A DNA stretch of 64,000 nt from IMG/VR virus record IMGVR_UViG_3300047159_000046; one strand, given 5' to 3'. Made by a program: the position numbers and the translations under genes. The notes beneath the pieces are model-generated. The model searched no databases and was not told the origin of the DNA. It saw only the letters and a program-made list of their open reading frames with translations. Positions 1,912-60,534 of the stretch are shown here, in pieces; position 1 is the first letter of the stretch; each line of letters starts with the position of its first letter. The DNA comes from a virus. Its lineage: Duplodnaviria > Caudoviricetes.

Positions 1912-1931
1912 TAATTGAATTGAAATATTTA

Positions 1932-2660
1932 TCAATAATCACACTTATTGCCATCTGGATCGAACCATCCTTTACCAGGATGCCAGATGTTTTGATGTGT
2001 AGTTATATTCTTGAATGCTTTCATTCCGTCTGTAACATATTTACGATTAGGCATTGATGTAACCGCAGTTGGATCTTTGTCAAAATCAGGATAACTGGTA
2101 GTATAATCTCCATTAGGATGAAAATCATCGTCTAAATAATCTTCATATTTTTTATTCCCATAATATTTCCCATTTATAAAATTATCATGTATATCATACC
2201 ATCTCTTAGCGGGATTCATGGCTTGTGTTCCATAGTCTTTTTGATATGCACTGTACGCATTTGTGGGTCCATCATTCTCGCTATAAAATGCGGTCAACAT
2301 ACGGGACTTTGGATGGTTAGCCTCAACGTAAGAATCATATCTATTGAACCCGTTTTTGTGGAGGTTATTCATAAATGCATCTTTATCGGTTGCCCTATCT
2401 CCATCTACATAGTCTGGATCAACATTACCACCGTGTAAATGAAACTGATATTTGCCACCTTGAGTTGGAAACCGACCATACTTTTTATTATACTCTTGTA
2501 CGAATTTGTCATTAAAAGCATTACCTAAATCATATCTGCCTTGACCAAAAGCTCTTTCTGCAGCATGGTTCCATGTATTCATACTTGCTTCAAGAATTGT
2601 AGAAACAGATTCCTTTATAAGTTTGTGTAATTGATTTTCCGTTAGTCTTACTCTTCTCAT
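1932..2660 (-). CDS. MRRVRLTE-leader family protein, copy 1
   Basis: N-terminus MRRVRLTENQLHKLIKESVSTILE is shared with three other genes; the C-terminal part is unique. Confidence 0.85.
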   Translation of the reverse strand: MRRVRLTENQLHKLIKESVSTILEASMNTWNHAAERAFGQGRYDLGNAFNDKFVQEYNKKYGRFPTQGGKYQFHLHGGNVDPDYVDGDRATDKDAFMNNLHKNGFNRYDSYVEANHPKSRMLTAFYSENDGPTNAYSAYQKDYGTQAMNPAKRWYDIHDNFINGKYYGNKKYEDYLDDDFHPNGDYTTSYPDFDKDPTAVTSMPNRKYVTDGMKAFKNITTHQNIWHPGKGWFDPDGNKCDY

Positions 2661-2768
2661 ATTTTGTTCTTTTTCCTATAAATATCTGCAAAATTTACAT
2701 AAATCACCATTTTCCCGTAAGTACCGTTCCAGACGCAAAACAATGTCAAAATATTTACACAAAAAAAG
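2661..2768 (-). repeat. Conserved ~110-bp upstream element, copy 1
   Basis: ataaatatctgca...cccgtaagtaccgttccagacgcaaaacaatgtcaaaatatttacacaaaaa; close matches at 3168-3277 and 60535-60639. Confidence 0.9.
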
Positions 2769-2822
2769 CGGAAAAATGTTAAGTTTCTCCGCTTCATTTT
2801 ATTCTATCAAATATGATATGTA

Positions 2823-3167
2823 TTAGTCTTCATCATCCATATAATATCCTCTTCCACCCTTTTCGTATTTGTAGTCACCATTAACTTGATGGTCATAGTC
2901 TTTATGAAAGTCACTATACTCTTTCTGTGCTTCTGGAGGCATTTGTGAGGACACAAACGTATGCTTAATTGCTTCATAATAATGTGGATATTTTCTTCTT
3001 AGAGCATCCATTTTTGCTGTTTCCAAAGGCAATGAATCTTGACCATTCTTCAATCTTTTAAGCCTCGCATTATCATACGTCCTCCAATCAATCTCGTTCA
3101 GTATCTTGTTGACAGATTCTCTAATTACATTGTGGAGTTGTCCCTCCGTTAATCTTACTCTTCTCAT
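2823..3167 (-). CDS. MRRVRLTE-leader family protein, copy 2
   Basis: N-terminus MRRVRLTEGQLHNVIRESVNKILNE. Confidence 0.85.
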   Translation of the reverse strand: MRRVRLTEGQLHNVIRESVNKILNEIDWRTYDNARLKRLKNGQDSLPLETAKMDALRRKYPHYYEAIKHTFVSSQMPPEAQKEYSDFHKDYDHQVNGDYKYEKGGRGYYMDDED

Positions 3168-3277
3168 ATTATTTTGTTATTTTACTGATAAATATCTGCA
3201 GAATTTACATAATTTACTCATTTCCCGTAAGGACCGTGCCAGACGTAAAACAATGTCAAAAATATTTACACAAAAAA
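3168..3277 (-). repeat. Conserved upstream element, copy 2
   Basis: Aligns directly with 2661-2768. Confidence 0.9.
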
Positions 3278-3340
3278 GAGGAACATCCAACATAATGTGG
3301 ACATCCCTCCATGAAGTTTATTTAAATCACAAAAACGTCT

Positions 3341-4330
3341 TTAGAATGGAGTATTGTTTTCATAATAGGTGTTGTCATTCTGAGGTGGCTCCTGCATATT
3401 ATTACTTTGCTGATAATAATTCTTATTCTGCTGAACATTATTCTGAACAGGCTGATTCTCATTCACCATGTTGGTTTGAGGAACGCTGTTTTGTTCGTCT
3501 TTTGTCAAATTAGGAACAAAAGTTTTCTTTGAATCATCCCACAATGGCTTTCGTTTTGATACCAATACCGCATTAAGATAATCATAGTTCTTTACAGGGA
3601 AAGCATTTACCCATGTCTTGTTATCATAAAGCCATGCATTGGAAATATCCGTATTCGTATTCAAAGGAGACGAATTCATTACTGGAGTAAGCATAAACGC
3701 ACGCTTGCCGTTTCCATCCACAGATACAGTCACGTTGATATCATATCCATTATTGATATCAAAGATATTTACCCCAACCTCATCCATTACGGACTGATAT
3801 ATTGATTTCAACTTGTCAAAAATTCCATCATTCTTTGCAGATGACGGGAATCTCCAGAATTTCACTCCCTCATCTTCATGTTCCCTGTCAATACATCTTA
3901 TAACATAGAACAATCTTGCATAATATCCTTTTGCTGTGGTATGAATGGTTTCCGCCTTTAATGTGTCCGTTTCTGCTTTTGATTCTTTCAGCAGTTTATC
4001 GTGAGCCTCGCATATAGGGCAAGGACTGGCATTATTTCCTCCAAGCAATGCCAAGCTCTTTGGGCACATAAGTGTTTTCCATTTTCCATTGGAAAAGTTC
4101 TCCGATGGCTCCACCTCTATATTATGGGCATAAATCTCCATAAACGGATCAAGATTATTGATATCTCCCGAAGGCAATATTCTTATCTTCAATTTCTTTT
4201 CTCTTATCCCTTTGGGTGGATAAACATTAAGATATAAATTAGGGTTAAAAGCGTTCTGCTTTTCCCCACCCGAAAATCCAGCTCCCTGATGGCGTGAAAA
4301 CGGGTCCTGATTTTGACTAAATTCTGTCAT
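3341..4330 (-). CDS. Single-stranded DNA-binding protein (T4 gp32-like)
   Basis: Motifs KIRILP, H..C..CPICE zinc site, EGVKFWRF, IFDINNGYD; low-complexity tail ending in PF. Confidence 0.85.
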   Translation of the reverse strand: MTEFSQNQDPFSRHQGAGFSGGEKQNAFNPNLYLNVYPPKGIREKKLKIRILPSGDINNLDPFMEIYAHNIEVEPSENFSNGKWKTLMCPKSLALLGGNNASPCPICEAHDKLLKESKAETDTLKAETIHTTAKGYYARLFYVIRCIDREHEDEGVKFWRFPSSAKNDGIFDKLKSIYQSVMDEVGVNIFDINNGYDINVTVSVDGNGKRAFMLTPVMNSSPLNTNTDISNAWLYDNKTWVNAFPVKNYDYLNAVLVSKRKPLWDDSKKTFVPNLTKDEQNSVPQTNMVNENQPVQNNVQQNKNYYQQSNNMQEPPQNDNTYYENNTPF

Positions 4331-4434
4331 TTTTATAATTGCTTTTAATTATGTTGTAAATATATGTGTTTTTTTTATTGAAACAAAAAAAAGATTGGAT
4401 TTTTTATCCAATCTTTCATTTATTAAAGTGTTGA

Positions 4435-5289
4435 TTAAAATCTTCTTTTTGGCTTAAAGAAATTTGGAGTGTTCTGGTCCTCGTCATCATCATCATCAAA
4501 CGAATCGTATAAATCATTGTCCGAAGCGTGATTGAGGTCTCCTACCGTTATCTCATATTCCTTATCCTCGTCATTCCCCTTTTCGGGTGCCATTCCTCCG
4601 CCATAATCTGGTCGGTCATTATAATCTCCGCCTACCATTATGTCATAATTGTCTTTTCCGCTCTTTATAAAACGTTTCCAATAATCTGAAATATCGGTAT
4701 TGTAAGGATACGAATCAAGACTCCGCAAATACAGTTTCTCTGTAGGTGTCGGATTCCTTTTGATTATATCCTGTTTTAGTCCTGCTATCTCTCGGTTGTT
4801 ATTGTCAATTATCTGTTTCATTGATTCAACCGCATTAAGCAAATCGGATATTCTCTGGTCGGTCTTTCCAAGACCTTTTCCTATGATATTGACCTTGTTG
4901 TTCATTTTCTCCTGAGCATTGGTAAGGTCGTCAACATTAAGAACATCTTCGTCACCATTTCCCTCATCACCAGCAGGAGGCATACCCATTCCGTTATCCA
5001 TAGGAGGCATGTTTCCTCCCATTCCATCATCGGCAGGAGGTGCCATTCCTCCGCCATTAGGATCTTGTCCTCCCATATCTGCTCCTCCAGTCATATCTGG
5101 TGCAGCTGGAGCACCTCCATCCATTCCACCGTTGGGATCATTCGGGTCCCCTGCGGGTGCTCCTCCCATTGCAGTTGGGTCCTGTTGGGCATTCGGATCT
5201 TGCTGAGCATTTGGGTCATCGTCTTCATCGGTGAGTGTGGTCCATTCCCTGATGACAAATCTATCCCATTTAGTCTTTGGTTTATTCAT
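4435..5289 (-). CDS. Acidic G/M/P-rich protein with a coiled coil (possible prohead core or scaffold)
   Basis: DPNAQQ repeats, low complexity, central heptad region. Function is inferred only. Confidence 0.6.
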   Translation of the reverse strand: MNKPKTKWDRFVIREWTTLTDEDDDPNAQQDPNAQQDPTAMGGAPAGDPNDPNGGMDGGAPAAPDMTGGADMGGQDPNGGGMAPPADDGMGGNMPPMDNGMGMPPAGDEGNGDEDVLNVDDLTNAQEKMNNKVNIIGKGLGKTDQRISDLLNAVESMKQIIDNNNREIAGLKQDIIKRNPTPTEKLYLRSLDSYPYNTDISDYWKRFIKSGKDNYDIMVGGDYNDRPDYGGGMAPEKGNDEDKEYEITVGDLNHASDNDLYDSFDDDDDEDQNTPNFFKPKRRF

Positions 5290-5739: not shown

Positions 5740-8700
5740 TTATTTTGTTTTGAAATTTATGTATTCTTCTGGGTTACATATATATTGATTGGTATGATTG
5801 TTCTCCTTTGTCTTGGCGATAAAAGAGTTATACCCAGGGAATGTATATTTTCCACTTGAATCCTTTGGCATAAGCCATAACTCAAAATGACAGTGTATTC
5901 CAGTTGACTTTCCACAACTCCCCGCTTTTGCAAGAATATCGCCAGCTTTCACAATCTGTCCAGCCGTACAATAAATACTTTCTGCATCCATGTGAGTATA
6001 TACACCTAACAGAATTGAACCGTCTTTGTTTTCCAGATTGTATGCAACTATGATAACATTGCAGAATCCAGCTGCCTGATGACAGGAAAGCACAATTCCG
6101 TCATGTCCTGCTACAAGTCTATCTCCCTTTACACCCTTTTCAGAGAAATCTATTCCAGAATGAAATTCTGGAGGTGCAGGACTGGTTCTTGCAGGATTCC
6201 ATGGACTACCTTTATGCTGGGAAATTTCCGTCTTGCTGGTATTTCCAAATGGTCCCCAGAAATCGGAGATAGGAGAAGATATGGTTTTCATTTTTATCTT
6301 AGACTGACTGGTCTTGAATATGGAATCCGTATCTTTGTTGGAAAAAGCATATTCATCATTTACCTCATCCCCATTAGCTGGACATGGAATCGCCTTGTCC
6401 TCCAATAAATAGGTTTTTATCTTTTCCCAATATTTCTTTGTGACAGAATCATCTATAAACGCATAAGTATAGGCATTCAAAATTGTATCTGTATCCTTAA
6501 ATGTGGTCTTATCTGCAATGTTTTTACCCATTATTTTCCACCAGTTTTTAGGAACGCTATCCAATCCCGTACCATTGCTATATATCAATTTATTATTATT
6601 ATAAGTATGATTCTGCCATTTATCCAAATCCGATTTTGTAAATGTTGATTTTAATGATTTGATATTGCTGGCTATACTGAATTGGACCGTAATACTTCTC
6701 ATGTTTTTTGTCCCGTCTGTTTTTTCTATCACCTGAACAAGAATATAGTCTGGATATTCCTGTGATTTGGCAGAAGTAAGCCATATAGCATGTTTAAACC
6801 ATCCATAATACCCTTGCGATTCCCCTGCTCCTGTTCGGACTATCATATCAAATAAGGTGGCATTATTCTGAGGAAGCAATTTTTTACTAACAGAATCACA
6901 TGCTGAAATAATGATCCAATTATCGGTTCCTTCCGAACAAACTTTAACATCACAAGCCATGGCTGCTACTGATTGAGAAGTCCTACTTACAGCATTTACA
7001 AACCCGTTTATTAATGTTTCATTATTTCCATTGCTTTTCTTATCATCGGTAGGGACATTTGGATCTTTTTTCATTTCCGCCAAATCTGAATCTGTCCATA
7101 TCGGTTCACTATCATCAGTTCTACACCCCTCGTATATCTGAACAAACTGATTTCTACCATAAGTAAAATAATATTTACTGCTATGATGATTAATACTTGA
7201 ATCAGAAGAGGTATATTCTGGAAATTGGGAATTATTTAATGAATATTGTCCTATTCTATATACAGATGATTTTGTGATTGAATTTTTTTGATCCTTTATT
7301 TTACCTATCGGCTTATTATAAGAATATGCCTGTATGTTTCCATATCTATTGGCATATTGTCCGCTTAAATCAATATCCAACGGCAATTCATCCTTTCCTC
7401 CCAATATGCTTAATGGATTTTCAAATATAGATTTTACATTTGCCTCTGTTCCTGAATTAAAACTTCCTTTTGAACCTTTAAAAGAAGAACTGAATATGTT
7501 ACGCCAACCTCCATTTTTCTTTTTTGAAGCCAATGCATGCTGATTAAACATACAAAGCGCAACCAGCTTTTGAGATAGATTATCAACTCCATTTGAAAAC
7601 TCTCTGTTTATCGTAGAAACAATAGCATCCCATACACTATCATATCCAAGTTTTGTAATATAATCTGGTCTATATGTTTTTAATGCAACTATATTTACCG
7701 TATGTTCATAAGAAGCATTTATTTGTGTCTGCATCAACGGATTATAGAACTTATAAGCACAATCGTTTTCAACAGAAGCAATAGCATTTTCTCTCGTTAT
7801 GCTGTCCTCCTCATCGAAGTTGCCCTGTGTATTCAAAAATGCGTTATCTACAATTCTATTGGCTATTTTTGGCAATCTGCATCCCGTAAATGTGGTTGTC
7901 ATCTCTCCGTTCCTTATTGAATGGGACATTTTACTAATCATATAAGTTCCCCTAAACATAGGGATGTTAGTCAAACAGAAATACATCAAAGGTTGAATCC
8001 AGCAACATCCCATCATTGACACGGTACACTCGTAAGATACGTTTGAGAATATAGTATACAAATCCTGACCTTGAAAGATTACAGCCTTATTTACCTTATC
8101 AGATCCCATTTGGGCTATCTGCATTTGTGCCCCAATAGACCATTCTGTGTTTTGTCCTTTATTGGTATTGACCTTTATGTTATGAAAGTAACTTTGGTAT
8201 TGCTGACCATAAGAAACAGAAAATGCTGGTATCTTTAAATCCTGATAATCATAATCTTTTATTACTTGTGGCAATGAATCATAATTATTAGCCATAAATG
8301 AATCTCCCTTATATTCGGACTCATCTGAATCATCTCCCAGTAAATGGGATGGCTCGTAATTATATACAGTCACAAAATCTGATTGTGTTGCATAATTTGA
8401 AGGCAAAACCATGGAATTATAAGGAACAGGAACAAATGCCTTTTTCATCGTTTCTGGATCTGACAAATTCGCCCAGTTTTGTATCACATTGAACGTCATA
8501 TTTGTTTTCCCCAATACATCCGTGATAAATTGAAGCAAAGTAAAAGCCTGTCCCTGCTTTAGCTGGTCATTATATATTTCCAGCATACTTGACATATCAA
8601 CCAATATTAAATCGCCAATATCGGTAAAGAATGAATCAATAAAGTGGAAATTCTTATCAAACCAGTTGGGAATATTATAATCACTTAATGATGAACCTAC

Positions 8701-11700
8701 CAACCATTTATCCCATAATCGTTTTAATGAATTATATATAGAAATCTTTGTGTCTATCTGCTGATTTGGGTCCTCTTCGTTTACCAAAGAAACGGCGGTA
8801 TCTACTACTTCATTGGTGGCTGCTGATAATGCGTTATTTAGAACAGATGCATTTAAAATTTCGTCTTTTAATTGTTGCATAAAATAAGAACAATACTCAA
8901 CCATATTATTCTTATATCCATTATTCAATACAACTAATGACTCGTTTATTAATAATTCAACATCTTTAGTTAAAGAAGTTACTGCTTCTGATTTTAAAAA
9001 TTCATCAGAAAAAGTATAATCAAAACCTAATACATTATCAAATGCAGATAAATTCCATCCACTTTTACCAGATTTTTTTATTTCATTTTCTATGTTTGTC
9101 TGTAAATCTCCATTCTGTTTGAGAGCAGCATCCATATTAAATTCCAAATTATTTCTAAAATATCCAAATCCATTTCCATCATCCGCCCAATTCATAAAAT
9201 ATTTAGCCAACACAAAATTATCAATTGGAATTATTGTCGGTGTATATTTAACCATACACTTGGAATTTGTAGAATTAACTGTATATAATAGTCCGTCATT
9301 AAACAAATAAGCCCAACATAAAGAACCCAAGTAAAGCAATTCTATTTTAGGATAACTAATATAAGATTGTTTCTTATTAAAACAAGATAACATTATATCT
9401 GTTATATTTATAACTACACTGGACCCGTAATATTGTATCATCGAACCACTTCCTCCCATTTGAGTATTATCTAAGAATAGAGCTGCCCTTTGATACGATC
9501 CCTTGTTCCCATAATAATCAATGTCATTAAATACATTAGCATCCGATTTTATACTTTTAGGATTTCCATTGTCATCCAATATATCATAACGTCTCTCCTT
9601 GCATTCCTGTTGAATGGTCCATCGTTTCATATTTACGAATCTATCATGTAAAAAACCGAATGAACTTGAAGAAATTAAATTTTGAAAAGCTGAACTATTA
9701 ATAATATTACAGTTTTCATCTATGATAACATATTCTTTAAAAGTATCAAGAGTATAAGCATCTGGATGTTCTTTTATCCATGTTTGTACTTCTTGTAAAT
9801 GTGATTTATGGATATACCATCCATTTGACAAGACATCAGGAATAAATACCCATCTCCAACCATTAGAGGGTACTTCACCATTAGTTTCAGAAGATACATT
9901 GGAATCTGTAACCAAAGAATTTATCGTATCTATATTATTTGACGGCTTTATCGCAATATTATATCCTTTTCTATTGAAAAGATTATTATCTTTTGCGACT
10001 AATTTCGATAAATCTCCCTGTTTGTATTTTTTTATTTTATCTCCATCTGTAATGTTTTGTAATCCTTTTCCTTGCATTATATTCAACATGCCTTCTCCAA
10101 GTGTTCCAAAATCACTTACCGCTCCAATCTTATCCTTAAACGAATCCGAAATAATGTCTTTATAAGCATAATAAAAATTTTTAGCATCCATTATACCACA
10201 ATGATATGCATAATCTTTAACATCAGCATATTTGGAATTAATTCTTGTAATATTCATTCCCATTGTGTTATAATAGTTGAATATCAATGAAGCACGAAGA
10301 TATAATTTAAATGACAAAATAGACGGATCCGTTCCAAAGAAATTATCCAAATCAGCATCTGTCAATTCTCCTAAATACTTGTCTGTCGTAAACAAGTCCG
10401 ACATAACAAGAGGCATATAAATGGTAGGAACCTGAGCATTGGTGCTATTTGTATTGTTAGCTCCAGTATTATCTGGTACAATGTTATTCATCTGTGCATT
10501 TGCATATTTTGTGGCATCAATAAGACCAAGAACCAAATCCCGTTCGGGAAACATGGTGGCATTTCCTTTGTTACCAACCCAACCATCTACCTGTTTACCG
10601 TGTTGAATATCATTTACTTTTGGGAAAGGAGGAACAACTGCTTTTGTTATATCAAAATCAGAATCTTCCACCATCATAAAACCACAATCAGACGGAGTTC
10701 TGTTTTTCTTATACACATTTTCAGCACATGAATACATACAATATAACAAAGTCTCAAAATGCTCCATTAATAATTTCATCATGTTTTTGACAGTTGGTCT
10801 AAAACCCAGTCCAGAAACTATTTTTGAATTTCTAACTGCTTTGGCATTATCAATAGCTGCCTGCTTCTTTGATTCTGAATTCTGTTTGATTTTATTCAGA
10901 TAATCATAAAACATTTCTCCAGTCTTGTTATTCATCAATACAAAAACATCATAATTCCATGTCTGATTAAATACTGTATTGGTAGATATATTCTGTAATA
11001 CTATTTCTTTTAAAACCTTATTTACATTCGCTGTTTTAAAGGCTTCTATTGATATAGATACTCCTGATGTGGTAGGATCATACAATACAGAATTTCCAGT
11101 ACCATAAACAATACTAAATTGATTTGCATCTGAATTCCCCATATTGACCAGACCTTGCTTCATGGACTCAAAGTTTTTACTCGTATCCTTATAGTATTGT
11201 TGAGTTAAAACATCCTGTTCTATATTGTCTAAATCTCCCTGATACAGAATAATACATACTCCTCTTCCTACATCGTCAGAAAGAAAATAAGAAGAAGAAT
11301 CATGGTGTAAATTGTTTTTAAATCCGTCAAAAACAGTAGCAAGAGAAGGAATATCTGACTCTATCGCATTTTGTGTATTCTGTGTGTTTGCCACTTCGTT
11401 GTTGGCCTGTTGTAATTCTGTATCTGAATCGACTTCCGAAATAACCTTAAATACCTGCATCAATCCAACAGGAGTCGCCCCATCCAATGAATAATCAGAA
11501 TTGGTACAAATTGTATTTTTCCAATAATCAGCACCTGCAAAAGAACAATACGGAGCACAAACCATAAGATTGACTGGGATATCGTTCAATAAAGAATAGC
11601 GATATCCTATAAGTTCCAAATCCACATTAAAGTTTCCTGTATTATTGTTAAAATCAACATTGACATTTTGGAACGCCAAATCATAAGTTATAGGAGTACC

Positions 11701-12396
11701 ATAATATCCTTTTACAAACATGGTTATGGATGGATTTGGCAATGAGAAAAGACTTCGGAATAACGAACCACTAAGATTTGATTTATCAAATCCTGGTATG
11801 CCATCAACCACCTTGGAATGAGTTCTTTCTTGTGGGGAAAATAATGACGTTCCTCTTACATCAACCAGATTCAACTTAACCTGAGGACAATAATAATTAT
11901 CATAAGTAATATCTATGGATTCTATTCCAAGCATTTCATTGCTTATATTATCCTCATATACATCATAATAGGTATGTTCTGTTCCCTCGTTGGTAAGATA
12001 ATTTATATGCTTATCACTTTTATGTTTTTCGGCATATTCATCTGATTCTGGCTGATTATGTCCGTAATAAAATCTTCTTCCAGACAATATGCTGGCTTTT
12101 CTTCCATTATCTGCTTTCCATGAAATAAGATATATTCTGTTTGATGTTCCATTATTTCCATCACTATCCGAAGTCGGATTTGTAGCCTCTTGAAATCTGC
12201 TTTTTATTTCTATCTGCAAATCAACGGCTATACAATAGTCCGTACCATCCCAAAGCTGATGAATACGTTTCTTTTGTCCGCTAAGGTCATTATACTCCTT
12301 GCTCGAATCGTTTATTGCATTCGGGTCAATATATGATATTTTTCCATTGATATCCTGAACATTAACATTTATATCTGTATTTACTGAATCAGCCAT
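5740..12396 (-). CDS. Large baseplate hub / tail protein with C-terminal M23 peptidase
   Basis: 2218 aa in the tail module; C-terminal HSGIDF, YTHM and STGIHCHFE match M23 HxxxD and HxH motifs. Confidence 0.8.
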   Translation of the reverse strand: MADSVNTDINVNVQDINGKISYIDPNAINDSSKEYNDLSGQKKRIHQLWDGTDYCIAVDLQIEIKSRFQEATNPTSDSDGNNGTSNRIYLISWKADNGRKASILSGRRFYYGHNQPESDEYAEKHKSDKHINYLTNEGTEHTYYDVYEDNISNEMLGIESIDITYDNYYCPQVKLNLVDVRGTSLFSPQERTHSKVVDGIPGFDKSNLSGSLFRSLFSLPNPSITMFVKGYYGTPITYDLAFQNVNVDFNNNTGNFNVDLELIGYRYSLLNDIPVNLMVCAPYCSFAGADYWKNTICTNSDYSLDGATPVGLMQVFKVISEVDSDTELQQANNEVANTQNTQNAIESDIPSLATVFDGFKNNLHHDSSSYFLSDDVGRGVCIILYQGDLDNIEQDVLTQQYYKDTSKNFESMKQGLVNMGNSDANQFSIVYGTGNSVLYDPTTSGVSISIEAFKTANVNKVLKEIVLQNISTNTVFNQTWNYDVFVLMNNKTGEMFYDYLNKIKQNSESKKQAAIDNAKAVRNSKIVSGLGFRPTVKNMMKLLMEHFETLLYCMYSCAENVYKKNRTPSDCGFMMVEDSDFDITKAVVPPFPKVNDIQHGKQVDGWVGNKGNATMFPERDLVLGLIDATKYANAQMNNIVPDNTGANNTNSTNAQVPTIYMPLVMSDLFTTDKYLGELTDADLDNFFGTDPSILSFKLYLRASLIFNYYNTMGMNITRINSKYADVKDYAYHCGIMDAKNFYYAYKDIISDSFKDKIGAVSDFGTLGEGMLNIMQGKGLQNITDGDKIKKYKQGDLSKLVAKDNNLFNRKGYNIAIKPSNNIDTINSLVTDSNVSSETNGEVPSNGWRWVFIPDVLSNGWYIHKSHLQEVQTWIKEHPDAYTLDTFKEYVIIDENCNIINSSAFQNLISSSSFGFLHDRFVNMKRWTIQQECKERRYDILDDNGNPKSIKSDANVFNDIDYYGNKGSYQRAALFLDNTQMGGSGSMIQYYGSSVVINITDIMLSCFNKKQSYISYPKIELLYLGSLCWAYLFNDGLLYTVNSTNSKCMVKYTPTIIPIDNFVLAKYFMNWADDGNGFGYFRNNLEFNMDAALKQNGDLQTNIENEIKKSGKSGWNLSAFDNVLGFDYTFSDEFLKSEAVTSLTKDVELLINESLVVLNNGYKNNMVEYCSYFMQQLKDEILNASVLNNALSAATNEVVDTAVSLVNEEDPNQQIDTKISIYNSLKRLWDKWLVGSSLSDYNIPNWFDKNFHFIDSFFTDIGDLILVDMSSMLEIYNDQLKQGQAFTLLQFITDVLGKTNMTFNVIQNWANLSDPETMKKAFVPVPYNSMVLPSNYATQSDFVTVYNYEPSHLLGDDSDESEYKGDSFMANNYDSLPQVIKDYDYQDLKIPAFSVSYGQQYQSYFHNIKVNTNKGQNTEWSIGAQMQIAQMGSDKVNKAVIFQGQDLYTIFSNVSYECTVSMMGCCWIQPLMYFCLTNIPMFRGTYMISKMSHSIRNGEMTTTFTGCRLPKIANRIVDNAFLNTQGNFDEEDSITRENAIASVENDCAYKFYNPLMQTQINASYEHTVNIVALKTYRPDYITKLGYDSVWDAIVSTINREFSNGVDNLSQKLVALCMFNQHALASKKKNGGWRNIFSSSFKGSKGSFNSGTEANVKSIFENPLSILGGKDELPLDIDLSGQYANRYGNIQAYSYNKPIGKIKDQKNSITKSSVYRIGQYSLNNSQFPEYTSSDSSINHHSSKYYFTYGRNQFVQIYEGCRTDDSEPIWTDSDLAEMKKDPNVPTDDKKSNGNNETLINGFVNAVSRTSQSVAAMACDVKVCSEGTDNWIIISACDSVSKKLLPQNNATLFDMIVRTGAGESQGYYGWFKHAIWLTSAKSQEYPDYILVQVIEKTDGTKNMRSITVQFSIASNIKSLKSTFTKSDLDKWQNHTYNNNKLIYSNGTGLDSVPKNWWKIMGKNIADKTTFKDTDTILNAYTYAFIDDSVTKKYWEKIKTYLLEDKAIPCPANGDEVNDEYAFSNKDTDSIFKTSQSKIKMKTISSPISDFWGPFGNTSKTEISQHKGSPWNPARTSPAPPEFHSGIDFSEKGVKGDRLVAGHDGIVLSCHQAAGFCNVIIVAYNLENKDGSILLGVYTHMDAESIYCTAGQIVKAGDILAKAGSCGKSTGIHCHFELWLMPKDSSGKYTFPGYNSFIAKTKENNHTNQYICNPEEYINFKTK

Positions 12397-24076: not shown

Positions 24077-24493
24077 TTATTCGTTTGATATTTCGTCATC
24101 ATCTGGTTGCTGTGCCTTGTCGCACATAATCCATACTTTTTTGAACAATTCATAAGCTGGATTTTCAATATCGTTTGCAAGTAATTCCAGTCCCTGCAAA
24201 GCCATGCTTCTTATCTGGATAACAAGACCATCAGCATTATCAGCAGCATTTTGCTGTCCGTTATTTCCTCCATTTGGCTGTTGGCCTCCCATGTTTCCCA
24301 TATCCATGTCCATATCCATATCTTCGGAACCGTCATCATACTGTTGCTGATTTCCATTGGGAGCACCATTGTCATTCATATCATTTCCCGATTCGGAATT
24401 GTAATAACTTTCATTTATTCCATATCTGCGGAAACGAGGAGCAAATCTTTTAGATTCGCAAAATCTCGAAAATCTATTATTTTTTCTTAGCAT
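24077..24493 (-). CDS. Hypothetical protein (basic N-terminus, N/Q/D-rich middle)
   Basis: Preceded by CTATTTAT; the basic leader ends in GINE. Confidence 0.7.
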   Translation of the reverse strand: MLRKNNRFSRFCESKRFAPRFRRYGINESYYNSESGNDMNDNGAPNGNQQQYDDGSEDMDMDMDMGNMGGQQPNGGNNGQQNAADNADGLVIQIRSMALQGLELLANDIENPAYELFKKVWIMCDKAQQPDDDEISNE

Positions 24494-24601: not shown

Positions 24602-27600
24602 TTACAAATCCTCAAACGAAACTCCCTGCTGAGTTATCATAAAGTCGATAGAGAAGTACTCAATCTGGGTGGTAGGCTTGATCCATATCTTGATTGGCAT
24701 TTCTCTTCTGTCCTTATCCTCATCAGAAGAAGAAATCTCAATCTTATATTGAACAATACCTCTATTCTCCTTTATAACCGACATTATGTTATTCAGCAAA
24801 CCATAAACCTTGTCTACCTCTGTCTGGTCATACTGGTCAAATACCAAAGGATTCAACGCATCAACAACGCTCTTTCTTACATAAAGCATCAAACGTCTAA
24901 TGGCGATTCTTGTTAATGGCATTCTGTCATCGTCTGCATCATAAAGTGTCTTTTGTCCGAATACCTTGCATCCGTCTGTGGTAAAGTTGATAATAGGATT
25001 AATTCTATTATTAGCCAAAGCATCACGTTCTCCGATATTCAAAGATTTCTTGACTTTGATACAGTCCACATTTCCATTCTGGAATCCTGCAGGAGAGTAC
25101 CAAGGGAAAGAGAAATTGTCTATCTTTGCCATATTACGGACAATATCACGAGTTACTGGCAAATAGATATACATATTATTGGTACTGTCAAGATACTTGG
25201 CCCAAGGATAATATACTGCAGCATATTTGGTATCAATGGTAGAATCATCAACCACATCAGATACATCGTCTGCCGAATACATTTCGTCTTTGCTATCATC
25301 AGCTCCATAAGGTTTATCAGGAAGTGTAGGCAGATACAATGTATCCTGTCTTTCCTCCTCTACCATTTCTATAACACTCTTAACCAATAAGTTCTGATTT
25401 TCTATATCAATTCCAGGAGTTGCCAGCAAATTGATATATATATCATTAGGATTAGAGAATTTTCTAATGGCAGCCAGATAAGCGTAATAGTCAGAAGTGA
25501 TAGAGTTTCCAGTCAATCCAAGACTTTCAGCATCTGAAATACCCTTGAAATTACTTCCCTCGTTATTAACGCTATTTACACGTCCCTTATAGTTTGCATA
25601 AGTAAAGTCATCGGTGTTGGTTCTATCTGCACGATAAACATCCCATCCATCAAAACCTCCGTAGAACATAACGGTAAATTTACGCATATTTACATCCGAA
25701 TAGATAGTATTTGACATATCCTCTTCGGTAGCTATAATAGGAGCGTCATCCTTATCTTCTGTTCTTGCCTGTGAATTGACGGTTGTAAATGTATAACCCG
25801 ATTCTCCCTCGACTGTTATTGATACTCCGCTATATTCACTGTTATCAGAATAAGAATCCTCATTTACTCTGCAATCCAAATGGAAACCATTTCCGAGTAT
25901 TCTATTATCACCCTCAATGTAATATCTATCTCCCTTGAATGTAAATGTATCTACATCAATTCCAGCCAAATCGGAAAGTCCAAAATACTGTTTCTTTGCC
26001 TTTAATTCTGTATATACATCTGAATTATAAGGTATTGTAGGAGAAGATACAGCATCAACCGCATTTCCAACCGTAGGATAACCATTATAGAAATTGATAG
26101 GATATCCTATGAAACCAGCAGGAACCGACAATTTGGTAGTGGTTGTTTCATTTACCTCAACGGTAACATAGTTCGATTTTGATTCATAAGTACCATCATA
26201 AGAACCTATCTTGTAAGCTATATAATTGGCACTTCCTGGTTCAAGATTACATTTAGAGTATTTCTCCAAAACAACAGGATTGGCATCGGTATCATTGATA
26301 TCACGAAGAACAACAGTAAATGTCAAATCATCTGGCTTGATATCTGTAATAGATACCTTGAACATGTTATTTGCATTATCTCCATCAGATATTGTGTGGA
26401 ATCTAAACAGCTTATGAAGTTCAATATGTGTTCTATCACCCTTGGCGTTTGAAACGATCCATGGTGTTGATGCAAATCTGTAAGAAGATTTATAATCATT
26501 CAAATCAACCGTGACAGGAACTATAGACTTTACTCCATTTTCATCAAGCAATCTATAATAATATCCATCAGCCTCGTTCTTGACAATAGCCATCTTGTTG
26601 ATATTATAATTGCTTTCCTGTACTGATGTTCCAGCAGATGTGTATCTAAGCTGGTCCAATATAGGAACGACATTATTATCAATAGATACTTTTGCAGCAG
26701 TGGTATTCAGGTTCTCCAACCATACACTTCCTTTTGAATAGAATGAATATACATAATGTCTTACTCCATTATAAGTAAACTGTTTGACAACTAAAACCTG
26801 ACCGATAAAATCAGCAGAACGTACACAAACAGAATATGTCTTAGGATCAATATACAATGTTATTCCAGTATCTCCAGTTTCTCCAAGGAATACTCTTTGG
26901 CCCTTTGTCGTGGCGGTAAATATTCCGTCATCTCCCGCTGTAAACTTGAAAGTCTCTTGTGTCGCTGAATATGGTGCAGACTCTGTAACAGCTGAATCAT
27001 AACCCGTATAAGAAGTTACAGTAAAGGTATAAGAAGTTATATTTTCTTTTGCATCCTTATCCGCAATCAGAGTGTATTTGGTAATAGCGGAAGAAGAATT
27101 ATCCGACAAGACATAAGGTCTGTTATTCACATAATTATACAAATGTACATTTACATTTGCTCCCTCATCAGCAAGATAACGTTTTCCAACATATTTCTTC
27201 GTAAGAGCCTCTTCCGATATAGGAACAAAATCAGAAACAGATTTCATACCACAATAATCGTATGTGTTAAATACATCATAAGCGGTAAGTTTATTGCTGA
27301 TGAAAGTGATACTTCCGTCATTGATTCCATTCTGCAGTGCTACATCATAAAGACTCTCACAATATATAGGTGCATTTGCGGCATCCATGTTTCCTCCTAT
27401 AACTTTAAGAATATAATTCTTATCAGCAGGATTCAAAGATAATGAATACTTGAAATAACCCTCGCTCATCTCTCTTGAAACAGGCTTTACATATATTGTG
27501 TTGTCTCCATATTTGACAGCAATATATCCAGTATCTGCAGTTGTTATAGCTGATTTTGAAGTAAAATACAAACCGTTAGCATCTGGATAAACTATTATTT

Positions 27601-28369
27601 TCTGAGGATTTTTTGCGTCTCCAGAAGTTACATAAGTATCTCCAGTACATGTAGAAAACACCTCGTTTACTTTAAGATAATGTCCCTCTGATGTGGTTCC
27701 TTCAAGACAGAACAAACCATAATTGTTTGCGCTTACATACATCTGAACAGGAACTCCGTTAATGGTATATCCGTCACATTCGTTTCCGCTATCTTCAAGA
27801 GAAACGAAATTGCTTATACCAAGGGCATCCATATTATATGAAGAAGGAGCGGTACAATCATAAGCATCATCATCCCATTCTCCAATATCATATCTTATCT
27901 TATCATAAACCGAACCTGCACATTTGCAATCATTAGCTATTGTAGGTACATATTTATGATATTTCTCATAATGTCCTCTTGAACGAATAACCGCAATAAC
28001 TGTAGGCTTGTTTCCAGTAGCTCCATTTCCTGCAGTTATAAGCCATGCTGGTCCTGCATTATATCCACTCAAACCAAGAACTCTTACAACATCAAGCTGC
28101 TGTGACTGTTCAAAGTATGATTTTGCGATATAAGGCAATTCATATTTAGGAAATTTACTTCCTTTGTATGTAGTAACATCGGTGCCTCCAAAAACCTTCT
28201 TAAAAGAAGCCCAATCGCTTACTTTTATAGGCTCAAATGCAGGCCCTTGTAGTGTCTCTCCAACCACTCCCAAAGTAGTGATTCCAAGACTCTTAACATT
28301 CGCTGCAACCTCAAACTCCCTCGTATAAACGCCAGGAGCGGTATGCGAACCTCTTGCTGTATCTGCCAT
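24602..28369 (-). CDS. Tail sheath protein (gp18-like)
   Basis: APGVYTRE, GETLQGPAFEP, LLATPG, YYPW, PWYSPAGFQNG, NRINPI, FGQKTL, RIAIRRL. Confidence 0.95.
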   Translation of the reverse strand: MADTARGSHTAPGVYTREFEVAANVKSLGITTLGVVGETLQGPAFEPIKVSDWASFKKVFGGTDVTTYKGSKFPKYELPYIAKSYFEQSQQLDVVRVLGLSGYNAGPAWLITAGNGATGNKPTVIAVIRSRGHYEKYHKYVPTIANDCKCAGSVYDKIRYDIGEWDDDAYDCTAPSSYNMDALGISNFVSLEDSGNECDGYTINGVPVQMYVSANNYGLFCLEGTTSEGHYLKVNEVFSTCTGDTYVTSGDAKNPQKIIVYPDANGLYFTSKSAITTADTGYIAVKYGDNTIYVKPVSREMSEGYFKYSLSLNPADKNYILKVIGGNMDAANAPIYCESLYDVALQNGINDGSITFISNKLTAYDVFNTYDYCGMKSVSDFVPISEEALTKKYVGKRYLADEGANVNVHLYNYVNNRPYVLSDNSSSAITKYTLIADKDAKENITSYTFTVTSYTGYDSAVTESAPYSATQETFKFTAGDDGIFTATTKGQRVFLGETGDTGITLYIDPKTYSVCVRSADFIGQVLVVKQFTYNGVRHYVYSFYSKGSVWLENLNTTAAKVSIDNNVVPILDQLRYTSAGTSVQESNYNINKMAIVKNEADGYYYRLLDENGVKSIVPVTVDLNDYKSSYRFASTPWIVSNAKGDRTHIELHKLFRFHTISDGDNANNMFKVSITDIKPDDLTFTVVLRDINDTDANPVVLEKYSKCNLEPGSANYIAYKIGSYDGTYESKSNYVTVEVNETTTTKLSVPAGFIGYPINFYNGYPTVGNAVDAVSSPTIPYNSDVYTELKAKKQYFGLSDLAGIDVDTFTFKGDRYYIEGDNRILGNGFHLDCRVNEDSYSDNSEYSGVSITVEGESGYTFTTVNSQARTEDKDDAPIIATEEDMSNTIYSDVNMRKFTVMFYGGFDGWDVYRADRTNTDDFTYANYKGRVNSVNNEGSNFKGISDAESLGLTGNSITSDYYAYLAAIRKFSNPNDIYINLLATPGIDIENQNLLVKSVIEMVEEERQDTLYLPTLPDKPYGADDSKDEMYSADDVSDVVDDSTIDTKYAAVYYPWAKYLDSTNNMYIYLPVTRDIVRNMAKIDNFSFPWYSPAGFQNGNVDCIKVKKSLNIGERDALANNRINPIINFTTDGCKVFGQKTLYDADDDRMPLTRIAIRRLMLYVRKSVVDALNPLVFDQYDQTEVDKVYGLLNNIMSVIKENRGIVQYKIEISSSDEDKDRREMPIKIWIKPTTQIEYFSIDFMITQQGVSFEDL

Positions 28370-31856: not shown

Positions 31857-32186
31857 TTAAAGTTTATAACGTTTTGTATAACTATCTATATTTCCTTTAA
31901 CATAATCGTCTCTTTTTGTTCTCGGAATACACTCGTCATACATCCATTTCTCAAAAGTTCTTCTATCATGCGCATCATTAGCTCTATTCTTATAATCATG
32001 CCTTTTGTCATTTGAATCATAATCCAAATCGAGCCAGTCTGCATCCATTTGTTCTTTTCTCGTGTTGGTAGGAAGGCCAAATTTCTCATGCCAAGATTCT
32101 GTTCTATAATCTTCATTGATGGCCTGATTGACAGCGTTTCTAATTATGTTATGGAGCTGTCCCTCTGTTAATCTTACTCTTCTCAT
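31857..32186 (-). CDS. MRRVRLTE-leader family protein, copy 3
   Basis: MRRVRLTEGQLHNIIRNAVNQAINE; ATG at 32186; CTATTTAT at 32206-32213. Confidence 0.85.
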   Translation of the reverse strand: MRRVRLTEGQLHNIIRNAVNQAINEDYRTESWHEKFGLPTNTRKEQMDADWLDLDYDSNDKRHDYKNRANDAHDRRTFEKWMYDECIPRTKRDDYVKGNIDSYTKRYKL

Positions 32187-32282: not shown

Positions 32283-33452
32283 TTATTCATCAGATGATGT
32301 ATTTTCCTCCTCGAAACGGACTTCACTGGCTTCAAAATTGCTATTGTTGGCTTCATTCATCGCCTTTACAATATTCAACAGATGCGTTTTCTTATAAGCA
32401 TCAAGATTTTCTGGAGCGATAATTCCATCACTTACACAATCCATTCTTCCCTCCGCAGAAGCATTAAATGGTTTGTCAAGTTGGTTTTTATCAATCTTTA
32501 TTCTTGTTTCTGTTCCATAATTATACTTGACACCTCCACAAACAGCATTGAGCTTTGATATTGCAGATTTAGACTCTCCTCCAACCTTGATAATAAGTCT
32601 TGCTGCAAACGATAATGATTCTCCGTTAGTAAGAACCATAGTCGGATGTCCCATACTTCCCATGTTATCATTCCAAACTTTGTTTACAAAGAACATGGTA
32701 TCTGTATATTTTGAACTTACATATCTTGTTAATCCCAATTTGAGCAATATATCTGTAAATGATGCTTTTAATTGAGCTGCGTCACGCATATTCTGTTTAC
32801 TCTTTGCCAAAAAAGATTCATAACTTTCAACCGATCCGACACTATCCCATATAAACAAAATATCTCTATCCAGTTCACCGTTACTCTGGGCGTTTAAAAA
32901 TCTTCTTATACATTCTGCAACATCTTCTATTACAGGTATATCTCTTTTTTCTTTGGTCTTTGATGCTCCTGTTCTATCGGCATAATTTATATCACCATAA
33001 AGATTGATAAGATCATTATTTCCGACATACACAAAATCTCCTTCCCAATGTGTTATTTCATTTGTTGTAACTTCTTTAACCTCTCCTGTTTCTGGATCAA
33101 CCACAGATCTTTTTACATCACCATAAACAGGTTCAGCTTTCATTCCAAAACTCCTTGCATAAGTAAAAGAAAAATTTCCCTCCGTATCTATAATGACTGG
33201 AAGAACATTTTTCTTTTGCGCTCCAACAATAGCAGCACAAACCAAAGAAGACTTACCCGTATTCGTATGTCCTCCAACCAATGTCAAAATACCTTCTGGA
33301 ATTCCAGGAAGTTTTGTTGCTTTGACAAAACCATCAGACATTGTTATCCAAGAAAGTTCTTTTAATGCTTGATCTCCAAGAGATGCCTTGAAATTAGCTA
33401 AAAATGAAGATGAACTTGCAGAATCTTTTTTCTTTATTGCTTGTTTAGCCAT
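32283..33452 (-). CDS. recA: RecA / UvsX recombinase
   Basis: Walker A GGHTNTGKS, IIDTEG, Walker B FIWDSVGS, KIDKNQL; TATCTTTG promoter at 33477-33484. Confidence 0.9.
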   Translation of the reverse strand: MAKQAIKKKDSASSSSFLANFKASLGDQALKELSWITMSDGFVKATKLPGIPEGILTLVGGHTNTGKSSLVCAAIVGAQKKNVLPVIIDTEGNFSFTYARSFGMKAEPVYGDVKRSVVDPETGEVKEVTTNEITHWEGDFVYVGNNDLINLYGDINYADRTGASKTKEKRDIPVIEDVAECIRRFLNAQSNGELDRDILFIWDSVGSVESYESFLAKSKQNMRDAAQLKASFTDILLKLGLTRYVSSKYTDTMFFVNKVWNDNMGSMGHPTMVLTNGESLSFAARLIIKVGGESKSAISKLNAVCGGVKYNYGTETRIKIDKNQLDKPFNASAEGRMDCVSDGIIAPENLDAYKKTHLLNIVKAMNEANNSNFEASEVRFEEENTSSDE

Positions 33453-36666: not shown

Positions 36667-37767
36667 TTAGAAAATTGAAATTTTAGAAAGCTCTTTTTTC
36701 AAATCCTCCTGTTTCTGTATATCTCCACTTTGTATGATTCTTACAAGATAATCTGCAATATCTTCTTTTCCAGAAACTCCTTCTTTGCCTTTCCACCAAT
36801 CATAAGTCTTGATATTCAATCCATCTTCAAAGATTGAATCCGATTTAGCTTTCCATGATTTCATTCCATCAATATCTGGAAAAGCTATAAAATATTTTTT
36901 GCTTAAAGATTTCAGCAATCTTGTTTTAAGATTCCCTATTCCTCCCGTTGCCATCCAAATGACATTTTCATCGAAAAAAGTGGAACATATAATTGCTGTT
37001 TTTTCACTTTCTACAAGAAAAATTCTATTTGTATCTATAATCGATGAAATATTTTCCCCAAAAAGGCATTGTTTGAATATATAATCGCTTGGCAGCTTTT
37101 CTTTTGCCAATGAATGTACCCAATTGGCTCCTGTAGTCTTTATTCTGTGACCATCGGTCCCGTATTGAATGATTTTTCCATCTCTGCATATCCCATTTTT
37201 ATCTATTTGCCAAAAAATCGTTTCATGTTTATTTTTTGTTCCTCCAACTTTATACATTGAGAATGTGGATATTACATGGCTTTTACGATTTGGAAACAAA
37301 TTTTCCATAAAACTATAAAGATTGGAATTATCACACATACAAAAAGATTTTGAAACAAACACATCTGGAATTCCGCAATTTTTATCTATTTCGTTACTTT
37401 CAAGTTCGTCTGTATGATATTTTTGAGGATTAAACACATAGCTCAAATCTGTATAAAATGGCGTTTTTTTATAAACATCACTCACGTCTATTCCTGCTGT
37501 CTTAGCCATATAAACCAAAGACGATATGGAAACTTTCTTCCCTGTTCTCAGGGCATTATCATATTTTTTCTTGTTTTCCTCAATGGAAAATCCAGAATAC
37601 ATTGATGCAATTTTGTAAAAATAACCTCTTCCGTTTTCTCCATATTCGGAAGCAATAGCAAAGGCAACCTTGGTCCAATCCTCAAAAGAGGATGCAATAC
37701 TTTTACCAGAAACCTCAATATTCCCGATAAGTTTGTCTATGTCAAATTCACAGAAATTGTTATCCAT
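36667..37767 (-). CDS. Primase-related protein (PriCT-2 plus DUF6371/TOPRIM-like domains)
   Basis: N-terminal FEDWTKVAFAIASEYGENGRGYF; C-terminal IFWQID, QCLFGE, LVESEKTA, WMATGG, FPDID, DIAD; probable start at MDNNF. Confidence 0.75.
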   Translation of the reverse strand: MDNNFCEFDIDKLIGNIEVSGKSIASSFEDWTKVAFAIASEYGENGRGYFYKIASMYSGFSIEENKKKYDNALRTGKKVSISSLVYMAKTAGIDVSDVYKKTPFYTDLSYVFNPQKYHTDELESNEIDKNCGIPDVFVSKSFCMCDNSNLYSFMENLFPNRKSHVISTFSMYKVGGTKNKHETIFWQIDKNGICRDGKIIQYGTDGHRIKTTGANWVHSLAKEKLPSDYIFKQCLFGENISSIIDTNRIFLVESEKTAIICSTFFDENVIWMATGGIGNLKTRLLKSLSKKYFIAFPDIDGMKSWKAKSDSIFEDGLNIKTYDWWKGKEGVSGKEDIADYLVRIIQSGDIQKQEDLKKELSKISIF

Positions 37768-46596: not shown

Positions 46597-46842
46597 TTAT
46601 TCTTCATCGTCATCAAACAACTGATAATCCTCATTAAACCAACCAAGTATTTTCACTATTTGGTCTTCTGACAGATATTCAAATAGATCATCAATCATTT
46701 TTGATGCGCCCAAACTATCTTTTACTTCCTGCCATTTGTCTATAACATCGGAATCGGTAGTTCCCTCGTTTACCATTCTTCTCATAGAGTTGTTTATAGC
46801 TCTATTGATTACAGATTCTGAAATTCTACGTTGTCTTCTCAT
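46597..46842 (-). CDS. Divergent leader-family protein (MRRQRRISES...MVNE)
   Basis: Leader resembles MRRVRLTE; CTATTTAT upstream. Confidence 0.7.
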   Translation of the reverse strand: MRRQRRISESVINRAINNSMRRMVNEGTTDSDVIDKWQEVKDSLGASKMIDDLFEYLSEDQIVKILGWFNEDYQLFDDDEE

Positions 46843-51252: not shown

Positions 51253-51846
51253 ATGAATATAGCGATAGACATAAATACTTTAAGAAATCTTAACAAACAG
51301 ATTAATATCTGTTATGAAAAGGAAACAGGAAAACCTTTTGTGGATAATGAAGAACTTATCAAGCATGATTTGAAGAGGGAAATAAAATTTGATTCCGTAC
51401 AGGCAAGAAGCAAGTTTTATTTTGAAAATTATCCATTCGAGATTTTTGGGTGCGCTCCTTGTATGACAAATGAATGTCCGTTGGACTTTGAACAATGGGT
51501 TGAAGAATCCGAGAATTTCGACAAGGACACGATAAATATCATGCTTGTTTCTCCGTTTGAAAGCGGATTGTCAATCAAGGCAACAATGTTTTTTCTTTCT
51601 AAATGGTTCCCTTGCAGAGAAATGTATTTTCCAAAGCAATCAACACAAATATGGGACAGATGTGACGTTCTTGTAACATCAGACGAAAAGCTGTCAAAGA
51701 ACAAGCCTGATGGTAAAATTCTTATTTTAATAGAGAACGGGACAAATAAGGATTTGGAACAATATGCTGATTTGTCTTATGAAACAATAGATAATATGAT
51801 ATCTGATAATTTTGATTTTAATAAACTTTATAAAAAAATAAAATGA
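51253..51846 (+). CDS. HAD-like 5'(3')-deoxyribonucleotidase homologue with degenerate motif I
   Basis: MNIAIDIN, FEIFG.A, T.FFLSK, CDVLV; the second Asp of DxD is missing. Confidence 0.55.
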   Translation: MNIAIDINTLRNLNKQINICYEKETGKPFVDNEELIKHDLKREIKFDSVQARSKFYFENYPFEIFGCAPCMTNECPLDFEQWVEESENFDKDTINIMLVSPFESGLSIKATMFFLSKWFPCREMYFPKQSTQIWDRCDVLVTSDEKLSKNKPDGKILILIENGTNKDLEQYADLSYETIDNMISDNFDFNKLYKKIK

Positions 51847-60201: not shown

Positions 60202-60534
60202 TTATTGCATTTCTTTCAAGTGTTGAATTTCACTTGAAATACACTTAAAATAAGCCCATATATAATCTTTAATATATTGACCAAATTGTTCATTTTCGTT
60301 TTCCATTAATGATTGACTACTGTTTACTCCCATTTGTGCATATTGTTGAATAGAATCAATCAATTGTTGTTTCTGGTGCTGATTCTGCTGATCATTATCC
60401 ATTTGATCTTGTCCTTTACGAAAACCTTGATAAGCTCCTTTCATCTTATCCATAAAACCTTCGTTCAAGATATTATTGACAGATTCTCTTATTACATTGT
60501 GGAGCTGTCCCTCCGTTAATCTTACTCTTCTCAT
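60202..60534 (-). CDS. MRRVRLTE-leader family protein, copy 4
   Basis: MRRVRLTEGQLHNVIRESVNNILNE; ATG at 60534. Confidence 0.85.
   Translation of the reverse strand: MRRVRLTEGQLHNVIRESVNNILNEGFMDKMKGAYQGFRKGQDQMDNDQQNQHQKQQLIDSIQQYAQMGVNSSQSLMENENEQFGQYIKDYIWAYFKCISSEIQHLKEMQ

Follow-up and report, generated by a model that had tools for sequence, protein, structure and literature searches.

The 64,000-nucleotide stretch of DNA considered here (the window, from IMG/VR record IMGVR_UViG_3300047159_000046) derives from a large uncultured myophage with T4-type genes, and four of its genes begin with the same 25-residue peptide, which we call the tag, followed by cargo that differs from gene to gene. 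The tag is modular and under selection at the level of the protein, and cargo is swapped behind it. As to its role, we tentatively favor a prohead tag resembling the capsid-targeting sequence (CTS) of phage T4 and trimmed by a gp21-type protease, a reading that is consistent with the circumstantial evidence. Tag genes would be expressed together with head genes, the tag would dock on a common partner in the core of the assembling prohead, the gp21-type prohead protease would cleave past the terminal Glu, and the varied cargo would stay in the capsid and exit with the DNA. The tag would then represent a longer, lineage-specific counterpart of the T4 CTS, carried by 7-28 genes per genome in large Bacteroidales phages. 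We infer late timing, prohead binding, cleavage, packaging, injection and any anti-defence role, and an anti-defence function of the cargo in particular is conjecture. A preliminary description of the window had proposed just such a packaging and cleavage tag, fused to interchangeable and possibly anti-defence cargo, and as a whole that interpretation is partly supported.

A modular tag with exchangeable cargo

The four open reading frames lie exactly where the preliminary description placed them, all on the minus strand and all starting with MRRVRLTE[GN]QLH as part of the pattern MRRVRLTE[GN]QLH..I..[SA]V. Copy 1 (1932-2660, 242 aa) carries its tag at 2586-2660, ending STILE/AS (here and below the slash follows the Glu), copy 2 (2823-3167, 114 aa) at 3093-3167, ending KILNE/I, copy 3 (31857-32186, 109 aa) at 32112-32186, ending QAINE/D, and copy 4 (60202-60534, 110 aa) at 60460-60534, ending NILNE/GFMD; as had been claimed, all four close in [IL]-x-E (ILE/A, LNE/I, INE/D and LNE/G). 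With a profile of the leader, which had been proposed as a check, the four copies score 42-66 bits (42 for copy 1, 51.7 for copy 3 and 64.9 for copy 4), and no other window protein is found at E<=10. The cargoes had been called unrelated, and past residue 25 they show no significant pairwise similarity, the best BLASTP E values being 0.02-0.07 without composition correction. That of copy 1 is rich in D, N, Y, G and K (pI 6.1) and has only three homologues, each with a tag; that of copy 2 represents the 'DWKTY...KYEKGGRGY' family; and that of copy 4, whose gene is inverted among plus-strand genes, is rich in Q and N.

The proposal of a modular tag with interchangeable cargo is borne out by peptide-level selection, by swapping with a breakpoint inside the tag, and by the presence of the same tag on many unrelated cargo families. 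Among 15 distinct tag DNAs, the invariant residues L6, T7, E8, Q10, L11, H12, I15 and V19 are each encoded by 2-4 synonymous codons, and because several synonymous codons are in use the tag is conserved as protein. Copy 2 has roughly 66 orthologues, with 47-57% identity in the cargo and a tag that barely varies. The JGI contig L003 is 99% identical to the window over 1-1930 and 97% identical over 3105-4885, and window positions 1931-3104 are replaced there by one different cargo (L003:1779-2255), in the stretch that separates the gp32-like gene from the exonuclease gene; L085, the nearest IMG/VR record, is without 2774-3111, which is the copy 2 cargo. In this stretch, near-identical genomes differ only in the identity of the cargo and the number of cassettes. 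The breakpoints of these swaps are located within the tag or cassette and where the gene ends. In this phage a tag gene forms a self-contained cassette with its own upstream region, tag, cargo and terminator, and new cargo, to judge from the breakpoints, appears to enter by recombination within the tag.

It is highly improbable that conservation instead acts at the level of DNA or RNA, with promoter, 5' untranslated region (UTR) and first codons forming a mobile regulatory unit of the PeSL kind, maintained by gene conversion or required for transcription and translation to start, and with the peptide a by-product. About 105 nt of upstream DNA are common to copies 1, 2 and 4 and, together with 75 nt of coding sequence, are repeated at these three window loci and in relatives; recombination breakpoints lie inside that repeat, and gut and rumen versions likewise keep the 5' UTR. 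The synonymous variation at invariant residues, however, argues against this explanation and rules out DNA-only conservation as the sole one. Further, copy 3, which shares only about 20 nt and the heptamer TATTTAT with the other copies, and many relatives keep the peptide without the cassette, internal copies (P0100, P0101, P0102) keep it without a start codon or UTR, and the same peptide recurs in 2,640 clusters with very different DNA backgrounds.

Those clusters (50% identity level) were matched at E<=0.001 by a 30-position tag profile among 1.84 billion representatives, and the family is real, large and undescribed. Its consensus is [KR][KR]-x-I-R-L-T-E-S-D-L-H-R-I-[IV]-K-E-S-V-N-[KR]-I-L-[NK]-E. 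The tag ends in [LIVM]-x-E at positions 23-25 in 357 of 425 distinct instances (84%), and it is N-terminal in 85% of 160 instances in phage loci. Many proteins carry two or three tags, whether internal, C-terminal or one at each end; a 667-aa protein tagged at both ends has SLSE/S before its C-terminal copy, and the same module may be found free or fused (P0108 versus P0242, P0112 versus P0257). Before internal tags there is a modest excess of the stricter motif in which S, G or A comes after hydrophobic-x-E (25 instances versus 13 expected). No cargo matched a known domain in Pfam and PHROGs scans, since nothing real emerged from either with seven window proteins or from Pfam with 111 tag proteins and 10 multi-tag proteins. 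A sequence-profile search of the PDB returned chance matches only, a feature search of the ESM Atlas gave nothing informative, and a literature search for the motif strings found no paper. A WG-repeat protein was considered as a partner of the tag and rejected, its similarity being generic to such repeats. Often fused upstream of the tag is a domain of about 190 residues with an R-x-S-N-H motif (L053:5383-5960, P0179:1-200, P0191, P0203, P0139, P0124), whose confident AlphaFold2 (AF2) model corresponds to no known fold (best VIA-align Z 5.0, at noise level).

The tag itself opens with a basic tip (MRRVR), continues with a helix cap (L-T-E-x-x-L, which we take to be an N-cap plus hydrophobic staple) and closes with an amphipathic helix of 18 residues that runs out in [IV][LI]-x-E. 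In a 342-aa chromosomal protein, consisting of an unrelated N-domain of about 180 residues, the tag and a tail, AF2 places the tag helix at 211-231 (predicted local distance difference test, pLDDT, 73-84) with disorder on both sides, and bare C-terminal copies of the tag exist elsewhere. Given the disorder that flanks it and these bare copies, the helix looks autonomous, and as modeled the tag is most likely a portable docking helix that binds a common partner. Neither the copy 2 model nor the N-domain model was matched in Foldseek searches of the PDB.

For copy 2, AF2 gives a single confident model (pLDDT 87; predicted template-modeling score, pTM, 0.71) with the tag helix at 8-24 followed by four more helices, and ESM-Atlas relatives align with it over residues 1-97, tag included; from these models the tag helix may pack on the cargo in this family. 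Both results lend weight to a distinctly unlikely alternative, namely that the tag genes form one fast-diverging paralogue family in which an ancestral small helical domain (the tag helix and the next 'DWKTY..NAA.K' helix) has kept its first helix as the leader and the C-terminal parts have changed too fast to align. The 'DWKTY/NTWNHAA' continuation does recur after many tags, being present in copy 2 and, more weakly, in copy 1. Yet at least six clearly different continuations follow the tag (LDWKTY..NAA.K, IGDT.KGQ, GGHLTW, G[FWL]F[GD] as GFMD/GWFG, seen in copy 4, ADFK.VDN, and acidic runs), and the tag also occurs as a bare C-terminal tail and after the unrelated 190-aa domain. Cargo is replaced between 97-99% identical flanks with a breakpoint inside the tag, and an integral helix should co-vary with its fold, whereas the tag is nearly invariant across cargoes.

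Least probable of all the explanations considered here is that the tag binds DNA in the manner of half a ribbon-helix-helix (RHH) domain, namely its first half, and autoregulates the cassettes through their upstream DNA. The basic, strand-like 'KK.IRLTE' and the helix after it presumably resemble the RHH strand and helix A, the copy 2 topology of strand, helix 8-24 and helix 28-40 would suit such a fold, and tag and upstream cassette are conserved together. However, no RHH match was found in Pfam (E<=1), in the PDB profile search or in the Foldseek and ESM-Atlas fold searches, in which a monomer model cannot show a dimeric fold; many tags are without a second helix or are C-terminal, and copy 3 is without the cassette.

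Head genes and promoter-like motifs

The end of the tag matches the protease motif, T4-type head genes are found in the same genomes as the tag, and tag genes and head genes have a promoter-like motif in common. In IMG/VR the tag is present in at least 194 stretches, many from genomes of 295-412 kb, and a Peptidase_S77 (gp21-type) protease and a 650-680-aa Gp23-type capsid protein are each encoded by five of five complete tag-bearing phages (295-412 kb). Among 15 fragmentary contigs (24-80% complete), S77 passes the Pfam cut-off in seven, close to the number that their completeness predicts. The capsid N-terminus of these relatives reads ...AKHLIYE/ATASDNSGSFETVVFP... (...LIYE/ATASD...), which in an alignment by eye puts I-Y-E/A at the T4-equivalent cut position; T4 gp23 is cut after L-T-E. 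The complete genomes hold 7, 8, 17, 17 and 28 tag genes. In G012 four of these genes lie no more than 3 kb from the protease gene, in G008 two lie no more than 2 kb from it, a 179-aa tag protein is encoded 32 bp downstream of it on the same strand in G011, and proximity is similar in G013, G018 and G023; since some of these genomes are mutually related, the proximity is modest evidence. A kinship between copy 4 and the protease-adjacent tag protein of G011 was considered and rejected, their likeness being confined to tag or low-complexity regions. In some relatives the protease match is itself split in two within a frame of 600-609 aa (G011:C1:265878-267536, G023:C1:125480-127138, G022:C1:111833-113368), an arrangement that suggests an insertion, possibly an intein.

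In relatives ATATTTAT stands upstream of capsid, protease and tag genes alike, and it matches the motif of the tag and sheath genes in the window. There, TATTTAT had been described as a putative late motif of seven named genes, and as to its presence this holds, with the heptamer 12-45 nt before the ATG in all seven. Across the window it is so placed at 14 of 54 genes, the sheath gene and others of the tail/baseplate block included; shuffling predicts 2.5 such genes (8 at most among 1000 shuffles), and the antisense strand gives 3 and shifted windows 1. Instead of TATTTAT, replication-type genes have a box of Bacteroidetes type, TAnnTTTG(CAG) (upstream of 32283-33452, 36667-37767, 41105-43417 and 51253-51846, among others). 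These patterns suggest two promoter classes, of which the host type would be early and the phage type late.

The upstream cassettes themselves are composite and lie on the minus strand. That of copy 1 (2661-2765), kept in relatives, contains T-run/TGTGTAAATATTTTGACATTG and TGGAACGGTACTTAC, then TAAATTTTGCAG, with ATATTTATAGG 24 nt before the ATG. That of copy 2 (3168-3276) contains TGGCACGGTCCTTAC (3227-3241), which is sigma-54 -24/-12-like, and ATATTTATCAG, while that of copy 4 (60535-60640) contains a perfect TGGCAC-N5-TTGC (60591-60605), a G9 run, the Bacteroidetes -7-box-like TAATTTTG and again ATATTTATAGG. These are two sites for the sigma-54 consensus TGGCAC-N5-TT[AG]C, against 0.11 expected; the element is kept in relatives, and the G-run varies from G8 to G12. 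Copy 3 is without a long cassette and has CTATTTATATT 26 nt before its ATG. Hairpins and T-runs are legible after copies 1, 2 and 4, and the terminator scan called none beside copy 4. A terminator-like hairpin of the intrinsic type ends copy 2 (2765-2795, minus strand), its T-run entering the copy 1 cassette, and a second one after the gp32-like gene (3277-3310) precedes the copy 2 cassette.

Divergent leaders had also been ascribed to three further genes, to one of them (24077-24493) tentatively, and by profile these are not members: none matches the tag profile at E<=10, and BLASTP yields only E=0.016-0.76. The first (46597-46842, minus strand, TATTTAT at -41) encodes an 81-aa acidic protein (MRRQRRISESVINRAI...MVNE), about 700 bp from which lies a gene for a 533-aa transposase-like protein (phrog_506, phrog_12300; 47560-49161, minus strand). 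The second (24077-24493, minus strand, TATTTAT at -25) encodes a 138-aa acidic protein between the tail sheath and tail tube genes, and the third (59157-60113, plus strand, TATTTAT at -24) a 318-aa acidic low-complexity protein with the N-terminus MRRR[NS]LDRIIDE...YIDE/GFMD. This last protein has only EGFMD in common with copy 4, the GFMD of which had been described, and it has a 70-residue N-terminus of its own, invariant in eight of eight homologues. It was also rejected as a relative of scaffold proteins, only tag or low-complexity regions being alike when it was compared with the scaffold-like gene that lies upstream of the capsid gene in G012. Taken as a whole, the earlier observation is partly confirmed.

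The wider setting is that of a T4-type phage for which the protein collection records a 241.5-kb contig. T4-type genes in the window include those for a gp19-like tube, a T4 baseplate protein, a UvsX-like recombinase, a gp32-like single-stranded DNA-binding protein and a 5'-3' exonuclease. The tail sheath (24602-28369, minus strand, 1255 aa) is about twice the usual size, matches sheath families over its C-terminal 520 residues only, and is only about 28% identical to cyanomyophage sheaths. In the tail/baseplate block a 2218-aa protein with a C-terminal Peptidase_M23 domain (5740-12396, minus strand) stands beside proteins of 1410 and 618 aa and may be a tail-associated lysin or a tape-measure-like protein. 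Phage searches of GenBank with the window DNA, copy 2 and a gut-type tag protein found no close relative, and Rfam identified no family in the window. The nearest record, a 33-kb fragment, is missing the head genes, contigs of relatives stop at glycosyltransferase genes, and a scan of viral contigs with the glycosyltransferase gave no match.

Tagged passengers in Bacteroidales chromosomes

Tag genes are also found in bacterial chromosomes, and their setting there is the first of several points that weigh against a prohead tag. A scan of one genome per bacterial species located 50 chromosomal tag loci, nearly all in Bacteroidales, with 1-3 tag genes in each tag-bearing genome; the isolates Prevotella sp. 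MA2016 and Segatella bryantii DSM 11371 are among them. At about 23 of the 50 loci, two of them in isolates, an IS1595-family transposase gene lies directly after the tag gene in convergent orientation. Three related copies were checked, and in two of them, L048 and L064, terminal inverted repeats of 24-36 nt, perfect or nearly so, enclose the tag gene(s) and the transposase, delimiting IS1595-family transposons of about 2.5 kb (L048:5269-7724, in a Prevotellaceae metagenome-assembled genome, and L064:4889-7485; repeats GGCAATGATATAGCTGTTGGCCCA) with one or two tag passengers. Housekeeping genes flank the L048 element, and the copies share transposase DNA that is 90-94% identical and the repeats, while the passenger differs. 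An S77 protease was not matched in five tag-bearing bacterial genomes, in a search without a positive control.

The remaining points concern the tag and its phage genes. Some 15% of phage instances are internal or C-terminal, and hydrophobic-x-E before internal tags is not enriched (44 of 134 versus 36 expected); it is, in addition, a common tripeptide in helices. At 25 residues the tag is longer than the 10-residue T4 CTS, which it does not resemble in sequence. The four window cargoes have a mildly acidic pI (5.2-6.3), whereas T4 IPII/III are basic. In the AF2 and ESM-Atlas models of the copy 2 family the tag helix is fixed relative to the cargo, as would be expected of an integral helix. 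Host-type (-33/-7-like) and sigma-54-like elements are also present in the long cassette, and with these, early or dual expression is possible. Finally, this phage's own protease and capsid genes would lie outside the window.

Many of these observations would be accommodated by an alternative that we consider unlikely but deserving of attention, in which the tag is a shared docking or oligomerisation helix on unpackaged, cytoplasmic proteins that serve host takeover, anti-defence or as mobile-element accessories. The tag would recruit one common partner (a Bacteroidales host factor or the tag itself) and leave the binding of diverse targets to the variable part, and no cleavage would be needed. 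The location of tag genes within IS1595 elements of bacterial chromosomes, isolates included and at 1-3 per genome, argues for it, as do the failure to detect S77 in those five genomes, the N-terminal, internal and C-terminal positions of the tag, the autonomous helix flanked by disorder, cargoes that are acidic or of low complexity rather than DNA-condensing, and the host-type promoter-like elements of the long cassette. Conversely, among viral contigs only large phages with T4-type heads appear to have the tag, in several genomes it is clustered next to the protease gene, and its promoter-like motif is common to capsid and protease genes; the near-constant [IV][LI]-x-E end (84%) would be left without a role.

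Phage genomes bear traces of the same elements. L075 and L076 have a full-length transposase adjoining tag genes, L136 has one some 2 kb away from a tag gene, and remnants of the last 30-45 codons of the transposase follow tag genes in about ten other IMG/VR contigs (L118, L097, L090, L113, L101 and L114 among them), the complete 401-kb G009 (L079) and 349-kb G011 (L130) included. In the window, no IS1595 transposase or inverted repeat was found. A capsid address would have no obvious use in a chromosomal transposon, and either the elements shuttle cargo between host and phage or the partner of the tag is not capsid-specific. A bolder account, which seems to us quite improbable, holds that the tag is a capsid address throughout the clade and that IS1595 elements carry tagged passengers, with the result that transposon or host proteins could be loaded into phage heads; this might sabotage progeny, or the transposon might be a shuttle that brings phages new cargo modules. 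Whatever the mechanism, a 25-residue motif in thousands of clusters without a database or literature record represents sizeable unannotated phage biology. Should the prohead reading be true, thousands of unannotated proteins would be marked as candidate injected effectors, anti-defence candidates included, and the tag could serve as a means to package foreign proteins in Bacteroidales phages.

Relation to known systems

IS1595-family insertion sequences with passenger genes have reportedly been described before (Siguier and colleagues, in 2009), and the Bacteroidales chromosomal loci, with tag genes and transposase between terminal inverted repeats of 24-36 nt, are of this kind. They differ in that the passenger varies and the tag is constant, and the window tag genes have no such element beside them. 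In the PeSL cassettes of T4-type phages, as Arbiol and colleagues are said to have shown in 2010, repeated promoter-containing DNA flanks variable small genes and drives modular shuffling. The repeat found here, in contrast, reaches 75 nt into the coding region, is selected as peptide and persists without the upstream DNA.

The cleavage motif of phiKZ-like and SPN3US-like phages is S/A/G-x-E, not L/I-x-E. Their inner-body and ejection proteins are nevertheless comparable in that many head-internal proteins, paralogue families included, are cut after Glu by a gp21-related protease, and several cleavage sites per protein and polyprotein-like substrates are known (PMC5694885, PMC10052503). Unlike the tag, the propeptides of these phages have no single near-invariant sequence across unrelated cargo.

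The closest parallel that we can draw is with T4, in which the CTS of IPI, IPII, IPIII and Alt is reportedly processed by the prohead protease gp21 (Mullaney and Black, in 1996). The T4 internal proteins are diverse and hypervariable and share only the CTS, which docks them into the scaffolding core; its first ten residues suffice, and Alt has propeptides at both termini (PMC3012670, PMC9026906). The T4 CTS is about 10 residues long (PMC9026906). Its sequence is related to MKTYQEFIAE. The tag differs from the T4 CTS in its greater length, its strongly capped amphipathic helix and its lack of sequence similarity, in the number of genes (7-28 per genome versus 3-4) and the internal and tandem copies, in the mildly acidic cargoes, and in its presence in IS1595 elements of bacterial chromosomes. 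The likenesses are a short shared N-terminal peptide that ends in hydrophobic-x-Glu and stands on unrelated, fast-changing proteins, a gp21-family protease and a gp23-family capsid protein encoded by tag-bearing relatives, cargo genes that are swapped between close relatives, and, in Alt, a precedent for N- and C-terminal propeptides. If the tag is indeed a capsid address, it would represent a much larger counterpart of the T4 three-protein system, one that has dozens of swappable packaged proteins per genome and spans a whole clade of abundant gut, rumen and sludge phages.

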